Shown here: positions 16,754 to 24,158 of the stretch, piece after piece | How the letters are laid out: every line of letters starts with the position of its first letter | Numbering within the stretch: position 1 is the stretch's first letter | Assembly: GCA_965219955.1 (NCBI GenBank) | Contig: OZ244799.1 | Span: 800,001-864,000 of the forward strand | DNA: 64,000 nucleotides | Direction of reading: 5' to 3' | Source: a bacterium | GTDB lineage: Bacteria; UBA8248 | Translations under genes and position numbers: made by a program | Notes under the pieces: model-generated | Databases searched by the model: none | Told to the model about the DNA's origin: nothing | Seen by the model: only the letters and a program-made list of their open reading frames with translations

Positions 16754-18826
16754 ATGAATCAGCCCCGGCAGAAAAACCGCCTCGCGCAGGAGACGAGCCC
16801 CTATCTCTTGCAGCATCAATACAATCCGGTGCAGTGGTACCCCTGGGGCGAGGACGCGCTCCGCAAATCAAGAGAAGAGAACAAGCCCATTTTCTTGTCC
16901 GTCGGCTATTCTGCCTGCCATTGGTGCCATGTGATGGAGCATGAGAGCTTCGAGGATGAGGAGATCGCCGAAATCCTGAACGAGCATTTCGTCTCCATCA
17001 AAGTGGATCGCGAAGAGCGCCCCGATATCGACGGCATCTACATGGAGGCGGTGCAGATGATGACGGGTCAGGGAGGCTGGCCCATGAGCGTTTTCCTGCT
17101 CCCGGATTTGAGGCCCTTCTTCGGAGGAACGTATTTTCCGCCGCATGACAAATGGGGGAGGCCCGGCTTCAAGAACGTACTCTTGAGGCTGGCCGAAGTT
17201 TACCGGACGAGACAGGACGATTTGCACGATAACGCGGAGAGCATCACGGCGAATCTGCAGCAAATGGGAGTCGTCACGGCCACAAAGGGTGATTTGAAAA
17301 CAGAGTGGATTGACCAGGCCGCAAAGGAACTGAAAGAGCGGTTCGACTCTACCTGGGGCGGTTTCGGAAGCGCTCCGAAATTTCCACCCTCCATGGCGCT
17401 GATGCTGCTTTTGAGAAAATGGAAGCGTTCCCGGGATCAGGAATTGCTTAAAATGGTCGAGGTGACGCTGCAAAGAATGGCGCTGGGCGGGATGTATGAT
17501 CAACTCGGTGGAGGCTTTCACCGCTACAGCGTTGATAATTATTGGCTCATCCCGCACTTCGAGAAAATGCTTTATGACAACGCTCTTCTGTCCAGAGTCT
17601 ATCTCGAGGCCTACCAGGCGACGGGTAGCGCGTTTTACCGCTCCGTGGTGGCGGATACACTCGATTACGTTTTGAGGGAGATGACCAGCCCGGGAGGAGG
17701 ATTTTATTCCGCGCAGGACGCTGACAGCGAGGGGGAGGAGGGCAAGTTCTTCGTTTGGCGTCCTGAGGAGATAGAAGAGGTTCTCGGCAAAGAAGAAGCC
17801 GACATATTCTGCCGGTTCTACAGCGTGACGGAGGAGGGGAACTTCGAGGGCAACACCTCCGCCTTGTTCATTCAGAAACCGCCCCGCGTTTTCGCCGAAG
17901 AATTGGGAATCACCGAAGAAAAGCTCTTTGAAGTATTGCAGAGGGGCCGGGCAAAACTTTTTGCCGAGCGCGAGCGGCGCGTGAAACCGGGGCTGGATGA
18001 TAAAATTCTCACGAGTTGGAACGGGCTCATGATCGGCTCGATGGCTTTGGCGGGCAGGATTCTGGAGCACCGCCCTTACGTGGAAGAAGCGGGCAAGGCG
18101 GCGGATTTTATTTTGAATAACATGCGCGATGAGCGCGGTTTGCTGAGAAGCCACCGGGAAGGCGTGAGCAAGTTCAACGCGTATCTGGATGATTACGCTT
18201 TTCTGATCGTGGGTCTGGTGGATTTGTACGAGGCGAGCTTCGAGCCCCGGTGGATTCGAGCGGCCTCGGATTTGGCGCAAGAGATGATTTCTCGCTATTG
18301 GGATGATGGAGGCGGCGCATTTTTCTTTACGGCCCACGACCATGAACAACTCATCGTGCGGAAGAAGATGACGCAAGACGGCGCCGTTCCGAGCGGGAAC
18401 TCGATGGCGGCGCTGGGTTTATTGAAACTGGCGAAACTCTCGGGTGAGGCGGAATTCGCAGAACGCGGCGAGGGCGTTTTGCGCTCGTTCAGCGACTATC
18501 TGGGGCGTGTGCCGGCCGCATTCCACATGATGCTCGTGGCGCTGGACTTTCATCTCGACTCCCCGGTGGAGGTGGCGATTGTCGGTGAGGGAAACGCAGA
18601 AGATACGCGCGCGGCTCTTCGGGCTGTAGATTCCCGCTTCATTCCCAACAAGGTTTTGGCTTACAAGTCCGAATCATCAGGCGAAGAAGCAGGCGTTACA
18701 GTGCCTCTGCTCGACGGGAAGTCCATGGTGGATGGGCAAGCCACTGTGTATCTTTGCGAAAATTTCACATGCAAGGAGCCGCTCACGAATTTGGAAAAGA
18801 TTGGAAAAGGGCTCGATAGTAGTTAA
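16754..18826 (+). CDS. YyaL/SSP411 thioredoxin-domain protein (DUF255)
   Basis: [33 protein letters not shown] and [11 protein letters not shown] motifs. Confidence 0.93.
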
Positions 18827-19597: not shown

Positions 19598-20239
19598 CTA
19601 GCCTCGATACTTGGCGAATGTCTCGCCGATGCTCGCGCCTTTTTCCAGCTCCGCGGTGATTTTTTCTTCGATTTTCGCAAGTTCATCCATCTTGTCGATG
19701 ACATCCCCGAGCCTTTCCCTGGGGATGACGACCACGCCGTTGACGTCACCGAGAATGATGTCTCCCTGCCTCACCGTGACGCCCCCGCAATTGATCGGCT
19801 CTCCCACGCTGATGGGAAGCGTATACCCGCCGCTGCCGTGAACCGATACCCCTCTGGCGAACACGGGAAATCCCATCTGGCGGTGTTCTTCGATATCCCT
19901 GGCTCTGCCGTCGAGGACGACTCCGCCCAGATTCATCACTTTCGCCCGCGTACTCATCATCCCGCCCCAGTTGGCCGTCGTGACTCCTGGCGGGATGCTG
20001 ATGACGACGATGCTCCCTTCGGGCGCCGCGTCGATGTGGTGCACCTCGCGCTTGGGCAGGGGGCCGCCACCGGCCGGAACCATTCGAACGGTGTGGGCCT
20101 CTCCCACCATCCGATAATCCGGGTCGGGCGACAACAGGATGATGTCGGGCATGTGGCCTCTGATTTTCAATTTATCGAAAGCGTCCGCCGCCTGACAGGT
20201 CGAATAGCTTCCCAAACGATTCAACAATTCGTTGCTCAT
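19598..20239 (-). CDS. RraA family / HMG-CHA aldolase-like protein
   Basis: ANWGGMM, DGRARD, FPVFARG and GDIILGDVNGVVVIP motifs. Confidence 0.88.
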   Translation of the reverse strand: MSNELLNRLGSYSTCQAADAFDKLKIRGHMPDIILLSPDPDYRMVGEAHTVRMVPAGGGPLPKREVHHIDAAPEGSIVVISIPPGVTTANWGGMMSTRAKVMNLGGVVLDGRARDIEEHRQMGFPVFARGVSVHGSGGYTLPISVGEPINCGGVTVRQGDIILGDVNGVVVIPRERLGDVIDKMDELAKIEEKITAELEKGASIGETFAKYRG

Positions 20240-20324: not shown

Positions 20325-21077
20325 TTATACACGAAATTCCGAAAATCGCACACCATCCGGATCGAGTTCCTCCAGGGCGCTCAGTTCTCCGGCGTCTGGC
20401 GCGGGAGTTTGCGCCACCATGCTCGGGCGCTTCAGGTCGAAGCCTGTTTTCTCGATCACTTCATCCAACGAGTGGCCAGGGTGAACGCTGGCGATCTCGA
20501 GCCCGGTGGGTTTTTTCTCGAACAAGGCGATGGGTGTCACGACGTGGCTCAGATTGCCCGATTGCGTCGAGAAATCGACTTTGGGTACGAGAAACCGCTT
20601 GTCGTGCACCGTTCGCCATATGACGGTTCGTTTCACCTGGGGCATGATAACGGCGCCTCCCCCGCCGCCAGGGAGTCTCACTTTCGGGTGGAAGGGATCG
20701 CCGATGTAGCTCAAGTTGGCTCGTCCCTGCTTGTCGAGTTGGGCGGCTCCCAGAAAAGCCATGTCCACCCCGCCGCGCGCAAAGAGATCGTACATATCCG
20801 GGTTGTAGAACATAGAAGCGGCACCATGGCAGAGTTCAGGGTCGGCCGTGCTGTTCGGCATAAAGCGCGGTTTCGGGTCCACCGAACCCGCGACTTCTAT
20901 GAGCGAGCAGTTGGGGGCATGTCGTTTCTTGGCCAGGAAGATCGCGACCATGGGAAGCGGGGAGTTGACCCCGTGAAACACGTTCTCGCCGTCTTCGATA
21001 AGGCGCGACAGCGTTACGGCCATCTGGTTTCCGGCGCGGCTCACATGTTCGGGCAACGAAGCCAGGCGGTTGCCCAT
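20325..21077 (-). CDS. CoA-transferase-fold beta subunit (GctB/IpdB-like)
   Basis: [37 protein letters not shown] and TGF motifs. Confidence 0.9.
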   Translation of the reverse strand: MGNRLASLPEHVSRAGNQMAVTLSRLIEDGENVFHGVNSPLPMVAIFLAKKRHAPNCSLIEVAGSVDPKPRFMPNSTADPELCHGAASMFYNPDMYDLFARGGVDMAFLGAAQLDKQGRANLSYIGDPFHPKVRLPGGGGGAVIMPQVKRTVIWRTVHDKRFLVPKVDFSTQSGNLSHVVTPIALFEKKPTGLEIASVHPGHSLDEVIEKTGFDLKRPSMVAQTPAPDAGELSALEELDPDGVRFSEFRV

Positions 21078-21079
21078 CG

Positions 21080-21907
21080 TTATTTCGTCACCGCGTCTTG
21101 CGCGTGTGTTTCATCGGTGCTTGCCAGATAATCCCGAAGCCCGTCCTGGCTTTGGGTCAAAGTCATGTAGCGCCTCATCTCGGTTTTGTCGACTCCATAA
21201 TATGGATGGCAACTGCATGGGGACGCCCCGCCCGGCGTTTCCACGACAGCTTTGACGAGAAAGCCTGGAATCGTGGTTCTCTCCGGCTCCGCAGCGATTT
21301 CTTCGGGGTCTACGATTTTCTCGGTCGTGAGAATGACCCCTTTTTGCGCCGCGCGCGTCATTTCAACGTCGAATTGCTGGTTGCCCAGGATTTGTGCGTT
21401 ACCCTGTGGGTCTGTTTTCTGGACGTGGATCAACGCCCAGTCCGGCTTGAGGGCGGGAATCGCATAGAGTTCCTCTTTCGTGTAGGGGTCTTCAATTGTG
21501 AAGATGCCGCTTTGCTCCGGAATGTCGCTCCCGTCGAATCCGCGAATGGGTTGGAAGGGAACGCCGTAGGCTGCGGCCCGCAGCCCAGCAAGTACGGTGG
21601 CTCAGGCGTGTTCGGTCAGGCCGGTCAACCCTTTTTCAATCGCCTTTCGATAGTGAGGCGCCAATCCGAATTCTGCCTCGAATGTAACAATGCCGCTGAT
21701 GATTTTCTTCACGGCGCCTGCGGCGCAAAGGAGATCGGCGTCGTAACCGGGAGAGGGCTTGATGAGCGTGAGGTCCCGAAGACCCACGCGCGCAATTTCG
21801 CGGACGAGCGCGGCGGGCGTTCTGTGTAAAAGCGTTCCCCCGGGGCTGATCGCGTCTCCTTGGCGGATGAGAGAAGCGGCTTCTCGTAAGGAAATTTGCT
21901 TGCTCAT
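21080..21907 (-). CDS. CoA-transferase-fold alpha subunit (GctA/IpdA-like), probable selenoprotein (TGA at 21604-21602 = Sec102), 275 aa
   Basis: ORFs 21602-21907 and 21080-21433 share one frame. Reading through a single TGA gives ...TEHA-U-ATVLAGLRAAAYGVPFQPIRGFDGSD...DPYTKEE...PALKPDWALIHVQKTDPQGN..., an uninterrupted full-length alpha subunit. A hairpin follows the TGA. Confidence 0.85.
21567..21587 (-). promoter_or_regulatory. Candidate bacterial SECIS element for the CoA-transferase alpha subunit
   Basis: mRNA +15..+35 after UGA: UGGGCUGCG-GGC-CGCAGCCUA, a 9-bp stem (one G-U) with a G-initiated apical loop at +24. Confidence 0.65.
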
Positions 21908-22141
21908 GGGCAGTTTTCATCCCTTTGTTTAGGGCGTATGCAACAGGAACAAGAAACCATGCGGCATAGTTTAGCAAAAGTAGATGTCTTGTGCTTGCTC
22001 CCATACGCCTTTTTGCTGGCAGAGAGGTGATTTCGACGCATTCATTGACCAACGGCCTCGGTGTGGCGTAAATATCGGTGAAATGACACTTTCTATCATG
22101 TGCCGGCATACATCCAGACGAATCAATTAAAGGAGCATGGA

Positions 22142-22654
22142 ATGCCACGAATTTCCTTGTTAGAACCCGAGCAGGCGGAAGCGTCCGCGAAACGCATCAT
22201 GGAGAATTTGCAAAAACAGTTCGGTGTCGTGATTCCGCCGGTGAAGGCCCTGGCCCACAAACCGGATTTCTTGCGCTCCTTGCTGAGTCTGACCACGGTG
22301 GCGGATGGCCCGGGGGAAATCGACGTCGGCTTCAAGGAAATCCTGAACATTCGAGCATCGGTGCTCAACGGGTGTCATTTTTGCGCCAACATGCATTCGA
22401 ACATGGCGCGCATGCACAAGGTGGGGGATGAGAAAACGAAAGCTGCGCAAGAGGGTTCCTCGAGCGACGTTTTTGATGAAAAGGAAAAGGCGGCGCTTCG
22501 CCTTTGTGAGGAAAGCACGCAGGGGGTGAGCGTTTCAGACGAAACATTCGAAGCGCTGAAGGCGCACTACTCGGAAGCGCAGATTGTGGAGCTCCTCGGC
22601 GCCATCGCGCTCATCAACACCTGGAATCGGCTCATCGTGGGAATGGGATTTTAA
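22142..22654 (+). CDS. AhpD/carboxymuconolactone decarboxylase family protein
   Basis: KE...IRASVLNGCHFCANMH (CxxC...H) and EKEKAAL motifs; RBS AAGGAG. Confidence 0.88.
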   Translation: MPRISLLEPEQAEASAKRIMENLQKQFGVVIPPVKALAHKPDFLRSLLSLTTVADGPGEIDVGFKEILNIRASVLNGCHFCANMHSNMARMHKVGDEKTKAAQEGSSSDVFDEKEKAALRLCEESTQGVSVSDETFEALKAHYSEAQIVELLGAIALINTWNRLIVGMGF

Positions 22655-22704: not shown

Positions 22705-23883
22705 TTAGAGGCTCAGTGCAGCCCGGCTGACCGTAAGTTCGGTTTCTCCCAATAGCTCCGATGTCGTGAGTTTTCCGCTCATCACGGAGATCAGTTCGTT
22801 TTCGAGCAAATCCCTCGCCTCGTCGATGCGCATCGTTCCTTCCATAACGCCGCTGATATCCACGTCGATGTTCTCGGCCATCGTCCGCGCGGTTCGGGGA
22901 TTTCCCGTCACCTTGATGGTGGGAGAGACAGGGTGCCCGATGGGGTTGCCGATTCCGGTCGAGAAAACAATCGCCTGCGCCCCGCTGGCCGCCAGGGAGG
23001 ATATGTTCTCCACGCCTGCGCAGGGCGCGTCGGCGAAGATGGCGCCTTTTTTCTTGGGGCGCTCACCCACGCCGACGACTTCGACGATGGGGTGGCTTCC
23101 CGCTTTTTTGATGGCTCCCAAGCTTTTCTCCTCGATGGAGGAAAGTCCGCCCCGGATGTTATCGGGCGCCGGGTTCGAGCCGATGAAATCGACGCCGATG
23201 CTTTCGGCATAATCGACAGCGCGCTTTGCGGAATCGATGATTCTCCGCCCCGTCTTCCTGTCCGCGGCCCGGCGGGCGAGCAAATGCTCGGCTCCGACGA
23301 TTTCCAGCGTTTCGGAAAAGATGACAGACCCACCCGCTTCCACGACCCTGTCGGCGACCATTCCCGTCACGGGGTTTGAGATGACGCCGCTGGTCGTATC
23401 CGAGCCTCCGCATTCGGCCCCGATGGTGAGTTCGCCCAATTCACAGCGGACGCGCCTGGCGGATGCGAGGTGGTCGGAAAGTTTCGTGGCGAGCTCCACG
23501 ACGTGCGAAGTGGTGCTGAGTGTGCCTCCGATCTCCTGGATGTTCACGGCTTCTATGGGCATCCAGGGAGACGTTCTCGCGGCTACTTCCGCGATGGCGT
23601 TGGCGCTCTTGGGTTCGAGGCTCACGATGATGGCGGCTCCTACGTTCGGGTGAGCAGCCGTGTGTCCCATGACCCGCCAATGTTGCGCTTCGTCCTCACC
23701 CATCAGGGCGCGTCCGAACGAGGTGTTGACGGGCGTGGCGTCTCGCACCAGGGAGCCGATTCTGCGGACGATGGGGTTGGAATTGTCCATTCCGCTGACG
23801 ATGGCGAGATGATTCCGGCCGCCCGGAGGGCCTTCGGGTCTCCTGTAGCCCCAGAAGGTGGGAGTGGCTTTTTTTCGGGCCAT
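22705..23883 (-). CDS. UxaA/GarD/SuyB-family dehydratase, catalytic subunit
   Basis: FWGYRR, HPNVG, ECGGSD, SNP, NPAPDNIRGGLSSIEEKSLG and FSTG motifs. Confidence 0.9.
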   Translation of the reverse strand: MARKKATPTFWGYRRPEGPPGGRNHLAIVSGMDNSNPIVRRIGSLVRDATPVNTSFGRALMGEDEAQHWRVMGHTAAHPNVGAAIIVSLEPKSANAIAEVAARTSPWMPIEAVNIQEIGGTLSTTSHVVELATKLSDHLASARRVRCELGELTIGAECGGSDTTSGVISNPVTGMVADRVVEAGGSVIFSETLEIVGAEHLLARRAADRKTGRRIIDSAKRAVDYAESIGVDFIGSNPAPDNIRGGLSSIEEKSLGAIKKAGSHPIVEVVGVGERPKKKGAIFADAPCAGVENISSLAASGAQAIVFSTGIGNPIGHPVSPTIKVTGNPRTARTMAENIDVDISGVMEGTMRIDEARDLLENELISVMSGKLTTSELLGETELTVSRAALSL

Positions 23884-23885
23884 AT

Positions 23886-24158
23886 CTAGCCTCTGGTGCT
23901 TTTGATGTTGTGGACGTGGACGTGGCTTCCGGTGGATATGTTTTGCGTGGCGGTGCCGATCACCTCGCCGTATTTGAGCACTTTTGCGCTCGGGCGGATC
24001 TTTCGCAGCGCGATTTTATGGCCGAAAGGAATTGCTTCCGTCGCGGTAATCGTCGAAGTTTCCTCGTTGCCTTCGACTTCCACATTCTGCTCGGGTGCGA
24101 TGTCCTCCAGCACGGTGGCCACATTGTCTTTCGGGTGCATCACCAGCGCTCTGCTCAT
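23886..24158 (-). CDS. SAF-domain subunit of a split UxaA/SuyA-type dehydratase
   Basis: DNVATV, IPFGHKIAL, KYGEVIG and HVHVHN motifs. Confidence 0.9.
   Translation of the reverse strand: MSRALVMHPKDNVATVLEDIAPEQNVEVEGNEETSTITATEAIPFGHKIALRKIRPSAKVLKYGEVIGTATQNISTGSHVHVHNIKSTRG

Follow-up and report, generated by a model that had tools for sequence, protein, structure and literature searches.

We report a putative selenoenzyme encoded in a 64,000-nucleotide stretch of the bacterial (UBA8248) contig OZ244799.1 (positions 800,001 to 864,000, forward strand; assembly GCA_965219955.1), hereafter the window. The stretch contains a gene pair for the alpha and beta subunits of a coenzyme A (CoA)-transferase-fold heterodimer, and the alpha gene is broken by a single TGA at codon 102. 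Comparative sequence evidence gives good support to this TGA being a genuine selenocysteine (Sec) codon. We consider it likely that alpha is a real selenoprotein in which the Sec, or the Cys of homologous proteins, is catalytic, and that the enzyme is a nontransferase resembling IpdAB and AibAB that takes an acyl-CoA or some related acid as its substrate. The features that carry this argument, including a candidate Sec insertion sequence (SECIS), are as follows.

21080..21907, minus strand: alpha-subunit gene of the CoA-transferase-fold heterodimer; 275 codons with Sec (UGA) at codon 102, assigned from its translation and its Pfam and PDB matches
21602..21604, minus strand: Sec codon UGA (codon 102); the same aligned codon is TGA in relatives and aligns with a Glu of IpdA
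21568..21586, minus strand: SECIS hairpin, GGGCUGCG-GGC-CGCAGCCU; 8-bp stem, GGC apical loop, and 15-nucleotide (nt) spacer after the UGA
20325..21077, minus strand: beta-subunit gene, 250 amino acids; PF01144 match at 2.6e-19, with Val (in LIEVAG) instead of Glu at the canonical catalytic position

An in-frame TGA and its hairpin

A preliminary description of this DNA, made from its letters alone, had proposed that alpha is one frame of 275 codons interrupted only at codon 102. Translation of window positions 21907 to 21080 on the minus strand bears this out: the frame holds a single in-frame TGA, in the context TEHA-U-ATVLAGLRAAAYGVPFQPIR, and the Pfam CoA_trans (PF01144) match runs across it, from residue 6 to residue 223 (4e-21). 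Under translation table 11 the same gene becomes a 101-amino-acid open reading frame (21602..21907) and a 117-amino-acid one. Since the first start codon downstream of the TGA in the window lies 57 codons later, reading alpha as two genes loses the most conserved block of the protein. NCBIfam had no model above cutoff for either the alpha or the beta subunit.

To see how the codon behaves in relatives, we drew on three sets of sequences. A read-through search of 40 related genomes recovered orthologs bearing a single TGA from 20 of 22 genomes of the same genus, at 81 to 97% identity, and from one genome of another genus of the same family, at 66% identity; this search found no TGA ortholog in the same-genus genomes G015 and G017, the latter being 79% complete. 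At all 22 loci checked among the related genomes, the TGA was the same codon. A metagenome scan, for which truncated database forms of the Sec alpha served as queries, yielded 76 loci (TGA at 53, TGC at 14, TGT at 8, and the region missing at 1), and a scan of species-representative genomes yielded 69 (TGA at 46, TGC or TGT at 22, and the motif missing at 1); several of the species-representative loci are probably the same genomes as in the read-through set, and the sets overlap and are not independent. Apart from two loci without the motif region (L093 and L151), the codon for residue 102 was never anything other than TGA, TGC, or TGT within the clade. The preliminary description had allowed that the TGA might be unique to this assembly, and had predicted Cys in homologs. 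The TGA turned out to be common to many independent assemblies and lineages, and Cys was indeed encoded at all non-TGA loci with the motif, 22 in the metagenomes and 22 in the genomes.

The TGA forms comprise about nine sequence types that diverge to ~35% identity with both halves of the protein conserved. They come under the taxon labels Nitrospinota/Nitrospinaceae, Tectomicrobia, Methylomirabilia/Rokuibacteriota, Thermomicrobiaceae/Chloroflexota/Limnocylindria, Sulfotelmatobacter, "Bacillati ANGP1," and Deferrimicrobiaceae/Deltaproteobacteria. Among the carriers of the Cys form are cultured Achromobacter (11 loci), Methylobacterium, Cupriavidus, Halomonas, Bacillus, and others. We aligned 102 alpha sequences, and column 102 was uniform in each group, with Sec in 60 of 60 rows, Cys in 35 of 35, and Glu in 6 of 6, the last being more distant IpdA-like relatives. 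Identical sequences were merged before the tree was built, as they were for the hairpin pairing, covariation, and beta-partner counts given below. In a quick IQ-TREE of the 102 rows, the Glu-type sequences fell outside the Cys/Sec clade (support, 89), within which Sec and Cys forms were interleaved. The Sec label required six changes on this tree, at least four of them forced by well-supported branches; the tree was midpoint-rooted for drawing only, and we claim no direction for the Sec/Cys changes.

The two forms also occur side by side. In one lineage (L043, from genome G023, and L052 to L054), the gene immediately after the Sec-type alpha-beta pair is another alpha, of the Cys type (~50% identity), an arrangement that looks like tandem Sec/Cys paralogs. 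At L079, L082, and L083, the contig carries two alpha-beta pairs in convergent orientation, one of the Sec type and one of the Cys type.

The hairpin downstream of the TGA begins 16 nt past the UGA, has a G-U as its lowest pair (dG, -12.9 kcal/mol; z, -2.25), and places its loop 23 nt from the UGA. The preliminary description had given a 9-bp stem and a G-led loop; the hairpin is real but differs slightly from that account, with a stem of 8 bp and a G-U at its base. The available text of a 2026 review (PMC13188914) gives the constraints on bacterial SECIS elements (bSECIS) as a stem of 4 to 16 bp, a loop of 3 to 9 nt with a G in its first two positions, a distance of 16 to 37 nt from the UGA, and a minimum free energy (MFE) of -7.5 or lower, and the window hairpin falls within all of these limits. 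The fold of the 71-nt stretch around the TGA was no better than that of shuffled sequences (z, +0.87; 161 of 200 shuffles as good). Fold energy taken by itself carries little weight in this G+C-rich gene, and the support for the hairpin is thus comparative rather than thermodynamic. The lower stem of the MFE fold was dropped, as it is not kept in relatives, and a search of Rfam returned no match in 21400-21750.

The comparative evidence came from 57 distinct Sec (TGA) segments, in which 97.4% of hairpin cells were paired. Three pairs had changed on both sides (25 cells), from C-G to A-U in 15 sequences, from G-C to C-G in 5, and from G-C to A-U in 5. None of 500 shuffles reached so high a covariation score or so high a paired percentage, and slid controls were 35 to 50% paired. 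Over the same columns, 20 Cys-coding segments were 63.8% paired and showed no compensatory change, so that the covariation check proposed with the preliminary description came out positive in the Sec set and empty in the Cys set. Synonymous sites pointed the same way: across 21 in-frame orthologs (1 of the 22 was out of frame and was left out), the six hairpin codons formed the only one of 264 six-codon windows without synonymous variation. Some of these paired substitutions change amino acids as well (Leu to Met along with Ala to Ser), which means that peptide and RNA co-vary here.

These observations bear on whether the TGA could simply be a stop, whether because alpha is a pseudogene, because the assembly is in error, because two polypeptides are made, or because the codon has been reassigned to another residue. 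Gene callers do split alpha, and public databases hold the Sec forms as fragments of 161 to 170 amino acids that begin just past the TGA site, as a real stop would predict. We nevertheless regard this explanation as very improbable. One codon is retained across lineages to ~35% identity with both halves conserved, no start codon follows it for 57 codons, homologs have Cys in its place, and the hairpin behind it covaries. Contigs of three other studies also cover the site, with the TGA and the hairpin unchanged, and the other genes of the window are normally delimited under table 11. An RNA-library run (X20) gave short contigs 90 to 99% alike, the nearest of which stops at 21611, short of the TGA.

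The genome from which the window derives (4.28 Mb; hereafter the host genome) carries all four components of the Sec machinery above curated cutoffs, as the preliminary description had proposed checking: selB (390 bits), which adjoins selA (578 bits), selD (333 bits), and selC, the tRNA-Sec (75.9 bits). The selD match (L011, G000:C1:2942487-2943449) contains one in-frame TGA of its own, from which selenophosphate synthetase would probably be a selenoprotein itself here. Elsewhere, selB was above cutoff in four of five other genomes with the Sec form and in four of five with the Cys form; the machinery alone therefore does not decide which form a genome has.

Residue 102 and the beta subunit in the CoA-transferase fold

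Both subunits carry PF01144, as the two domains of a family I CoA-transferase do. By HMMER, the best PDB matches of alpha, all full length, were GctA (1poi_A, 1.4e-32), AibA (5mzw_A, 4e-32), and IpdA (6con_A, 6coj_A, and 6co6_A, ~1e-30). These belong to three characterized enzymes of the same fold: glutaconate CoA-transferase (GCT; GctAB, PDB 1poi), the 3-methylglutaconyl-CoA decarboxylase AibA/AibB of Myxococcus xanthus (PDB 5mzw-5n03), and IpdAB, the COCHEA-CoA ring-opening hydrolase of steroid catabolism (PDB 6co6, 6co9, 6coj, and 6con), which has the same alpha/beta family I architecture. Residue 102 aligned with the E of "MDEGM" in wild-type IpdA (6co6_A and 6con_A) and with the A of "MDAGM" in 6coj_A; Sec102 is thus aligned with a residue that the depositors mutated, and the preliminary description, which had aligned E-H-A-U with E-M-D-E, had arrived at the same correspondence. 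We take the IpdA position to be Glu105-alpha, which Crowe et al. in 2018 reportedly proposed as the catalytic base. The window alpha does not have the IpdAB-type Glu of the "MDE" position and carries Sec there (Cys in homologs), and the counterpart is Gln in GctA and Gly in AibA (EHDG, against EHAU in the window).

The beta gene follows alpha at every locus long enough to show the order. In the window it reads ...HAPNCSLIEVAGSVDP..., as the preliminary description had quoted it, and its best PDB match is AibB (~1e-34); it matches GCT at 1.3e-23, and its similarity to IpdAB is weak (3e-4). The Val of LIEVAG aligned with Cys56 of AibB, a residue that replaces the conserved catalytic Glu of glutaconate CoA-transferases (available text of PMC7756340), in agreement with the earlier placement of Val at the Glu54 position. 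In GCT, Glu54-beta is essential, and it corresponds to Gly57-beta in the IpdAB of Rhodococcus, which showed no transferase activity (mBio 2017; available text of PMC5380842). The window beta accordingly has neither the family I catalytic Glu (Glu54 of GctB) nor the Cys56 of the AibAB type. The Glu is absent from other betas too: 112 unique betas that partner Sec or Cys alphas had V, I, or F at the Glu54 position, with Glu in none of the 112. Just ahead of the Val, the window beta has a Glu for which other lineages have N, T, or S.

The host genome contains two further pairs of this kind. One (L191) is a Cys-type paralog pair. The other (L192, G000:C1:2384408-2385190) has His at the Sec position and keeps the canonical beta Glu (LFEGG); it is probably an ordinary CoA-transferase. 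Canonical and altered forms therefore coexist in one genome.

With residue 102 at this position and the beta Glu lost, the pair is unlikely to be a classical CoA-transferase. The preliminary description had suggested that the pair might still be a true transferase, with the alpha selenolate or thiolate taking the place of the beta Glu as covalent carrier, through an acyl-selenoester or a Se-CoA adduct. CoA_trans domains on both subunits, a residue 102 at the aligned active-site position, and the missing beta Glu are all compatible with this suggestion, yet we give it little credence. The ping-pong mechanism of family I needs a carboxylate for the anhydride and the enzyme-CoA thioester (the anhydride forms at Glu54-beta [available text of PMC5380842]), and neither a thiol nor a selenol can serve as a CoA carrier in this manner. 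IpdAB and AibAB, two characterized relatives that lack the beta Glu, are not transferases. Finally, at Cys-type loci a family III CoA-transferase and an acyl-CoA ligase are encoded separately.

We instead favor a nontransferase like IpdAB and AibAB and propose the following scheme. SelB, guided by the 8-bp, GGC-loop hairpin, would read UGA-102 as selenocysteine. The resulting alpha would pair with beta in a heterodimer of the family I CoA-transferase fold, as a member of a large clade without the beta catalytic Glu, in which alpha bears Cys or Sec where IpdAB has the Glu that is mutated in 6coj. This Sec or Cys may then act as the catalytic residue, either as a nucleophile or as an acid/base; as a nucleophile, it would attack a carbonyl or an activated double bond to form a covalent thio- or seleno-adduct. 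The sequences show that Sec is encoded, where the residue aligns, and that the beta Glu has been lost; the catalytic role, the type of chemistry, and the kind of substrate are what we infer. The pKa of a selenol is given as 5.2 (available text of PMC13188914), which we would judge to be close to that of a carboxylate.

Each of the two relatives shares part of this arrangement. With IpdAB, the window pair has in common a full-length alpha match, the loss of the beta catalytic Glu, and a key alpha residue at the Sec102 position; it differs in having Sec or Cys for the IpdA Glu, in the weak similarity of its beta, and in its lack of steroid-catabolic neighbors. With AibAB, it has in common the closest beta match and a beta Glu replaced in a nontransferase (available text of PMC7756340); it differs in having Val for Cys56 in beta and Sec for Gly in alpha. 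From GctAB, which gave the best alpha match, it is set apart by the absence of Glu54-beta and by Sec in place of the GctA Gln.

Gene neighborhood and the case for a redox role

Three annotated features flank the gene pair.

19598..20239, minus strand: RraA-like/HMG-aldolase-family gene (PF03737, 3.2e-33), directly downstream of beta
22100..22654, plus strand: CMD/AhpD-like gene with a CHFC motif and no in-frame TGA (PF02627, 2.8e-14), divergent from alpha
22705..24158, minus strand: split UxaA/GarD-like dehydratase, SAF at 24158..23886 and GD_AH at 23883..22705 (PF08666, PF04295, and PF20629)

The CMD gene is the neighbor that speaks most directly to mechanism. It lies upstream of alpha at all 38 loci with at least 80% identity and at 9 of 15 loci with 60 to 79% identity, and CMD-like proteins are a listed selenoprotein family (CxxU) in the available text of the 2026 review (PMC13188914). 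Its constant presence close by hints at redox chemistry, in which the Sec would be a redox center that forms a selenenylsulfide, its partner being either a Cys in the enzyme itself or the neighboring AhpD-like CxxC protein. Most known selenoproteins work in this way (the majority of known prokaryotic ones are redox proteins [available text of PMC13188914]), and a candidate internal partner, alpha Cys233, occurs in 57 of 60 Sec rows. Against such a role, all 43 of the more distant Sec loci whose upstream sequence was long enough, and all 46 Cys loci, lacked the CMD gene. Cys233 is no clade-specific partner either, being found in 4 of 6 Glu-type rows and missing from 11 of 35 Cys-type rows. In the alpha translation, residue 102 is not part of a UxxC or CxxU motif, and neither the fold nor its three characterized relatives are those of redox enzymes. 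We therefore consider a redox center unlikely as a general explanation; a redox role with the AhpD-like partner is possible in the closest lineages. A second conserved Cys was also sought in the alpha alignment as a redox partner, and none was clade specific.

The other neighbors are conserved over short distances. The RraA-like gene adjoins beta at loci with 65 to 100% identity and is co-conserved in the closest lineages only. The split dehydratase stays with the operon within the genus only, being present at L023 to L044 and at L050 and L051 and not at L046 to L049. It consists of a 90-amino-acid SAF protein and a 392-amino-acid catalytic protein, a division that is presumably the architecture of the sulfolactate sulfo-lyase SuyAB. 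Around the pair, the window holds the RraA-like, CMD, and UxaA-like genes together with RlpA, DUF255, and peptidase genes; a steroid-catabolic context (crotonase EchA20, thiolase FadA6, or IpdC) was not found among these neighbors. The DUF255 gene (16754-18826, plus strand), a few genes from the Sec operon, encodes a 690-amino-acid protein with a thioredoxin domain (Thioredox_DsbH, 1.6e-78).

In six divergent Sec lineages the neighbors were unrelated to these and included a CLC channel, DinB, an amidase, DUF1684, AA_synth, an amidohydrolase, an MFS transporter, an aminotransferase, a Liv-type ABC transporter, and MsrA. Beside one Sec-type pair (L065:1500-2672, plus strand) lies a gene for an LVIVD-repeat protein with a weak, sub-cutoff match to the 56-kDa selenium-binding protein family (E, 1.7e-4). 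At two Cys-type loci the neighbors were acyl-CoA genes. A family III CoA-transferase was accompanied by a crotonase, an AMP-forming ligase, and a GntR regulator at the one, and an SDR protein by a 4HBT thioesterase at the other; these neighbors point to acyl-CoA substrates and a separate CoA-activation enzyme.

Several of these results weigh against our preferred reading of a catalytic Sec/Cys in a nontransferase, as do others not yet mentioned. The CMD gene next to alpha in the closest lineages is one. Another is that the neighborhoods vary between Sec lineages, such that no substrate can be named. The placement of residue 102 in the active site is itself a deduction from the alignment of its sequence with IpdA. 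In the most divergent Sec lineage (the Deferrimicrobiaceae type), 13 beta rows are gapped at the Glu54 position, having a shorter loop there and a Glu three residues later.

An apparently uncatalogued selenoprotein family and its significance

The alpha subunit resembles known bacterial selenoproteins with a SECIS in the coding region in its pairing of UGA with Cys, its bSECIS-type hairpin, and its patchy Sec/Cys distribution, and it differs from them in lacking the UxxC/CxxU context at residue 102. The preliminary description had not recognized it among the classic families. In keeping with this, the family tables in the available text of a 2022 review (PMC9312934) and of the 2026 review (PMC13188914) have no CoA-transferase entry, and the 2026 table does not list PF01144. 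The main texts of deep-Sep and BSepDB likewise mention no CoA-transferase selenoprotein, although their supplementary lists (BSepDB Table S2 and those of deep-Sep) could name it. A full-text literature search for selenoprotein or selenocysteine together with (glutaconate) CoA-transferase returned nothing relevant as judged by title and abstract. On the sequence evidence we regard this as a genuine selenoprotein family in the CoA-transferase fold, widespread and absent from the 2022 and 2026 review tables and from NCBIfam.

A broader proposal, about which we are more tentative and slightly more doubtful than confident, is that these proteins are widespread, uncatalogued selenoenzymes in which Sec or Cys replaces a carboxylate catalyst within the CoA-transferase fold. 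They would carry out nonredox C-C cleavage, decarboxylation, or acyl chemistry on CoA esters by means of a selenolate nucleophile or base, with at least four Sec/Cys exchanges across phyla.

One consequence is practical. Because gene calling has left alpha in two pieces in public databases, the locus is wrongly annotated in genomes of Nitrospinota, Tectomicrobia, Methylomirabilota, Chloroflexota, Acidobacteriota, and the Deferrimicrobiaceae type, and a family model carrying a Sec flag would correct this annotation.

The other consequences concern what selenium does in proteins. Almost all catalogued bacterial selenoproteins are redox enzymes. Here, Sec occupies the aligned catalytic position of a nonredox fold, in a clade that is without the usual nucleophile of that fold. 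The natural series of Sec, Cys, Glu, and His at one position offers a way to test what selenium adds, and if the residue is catalytic, the family would show a well-studied enzyme superfamily to have arrived at a new chemical solution.

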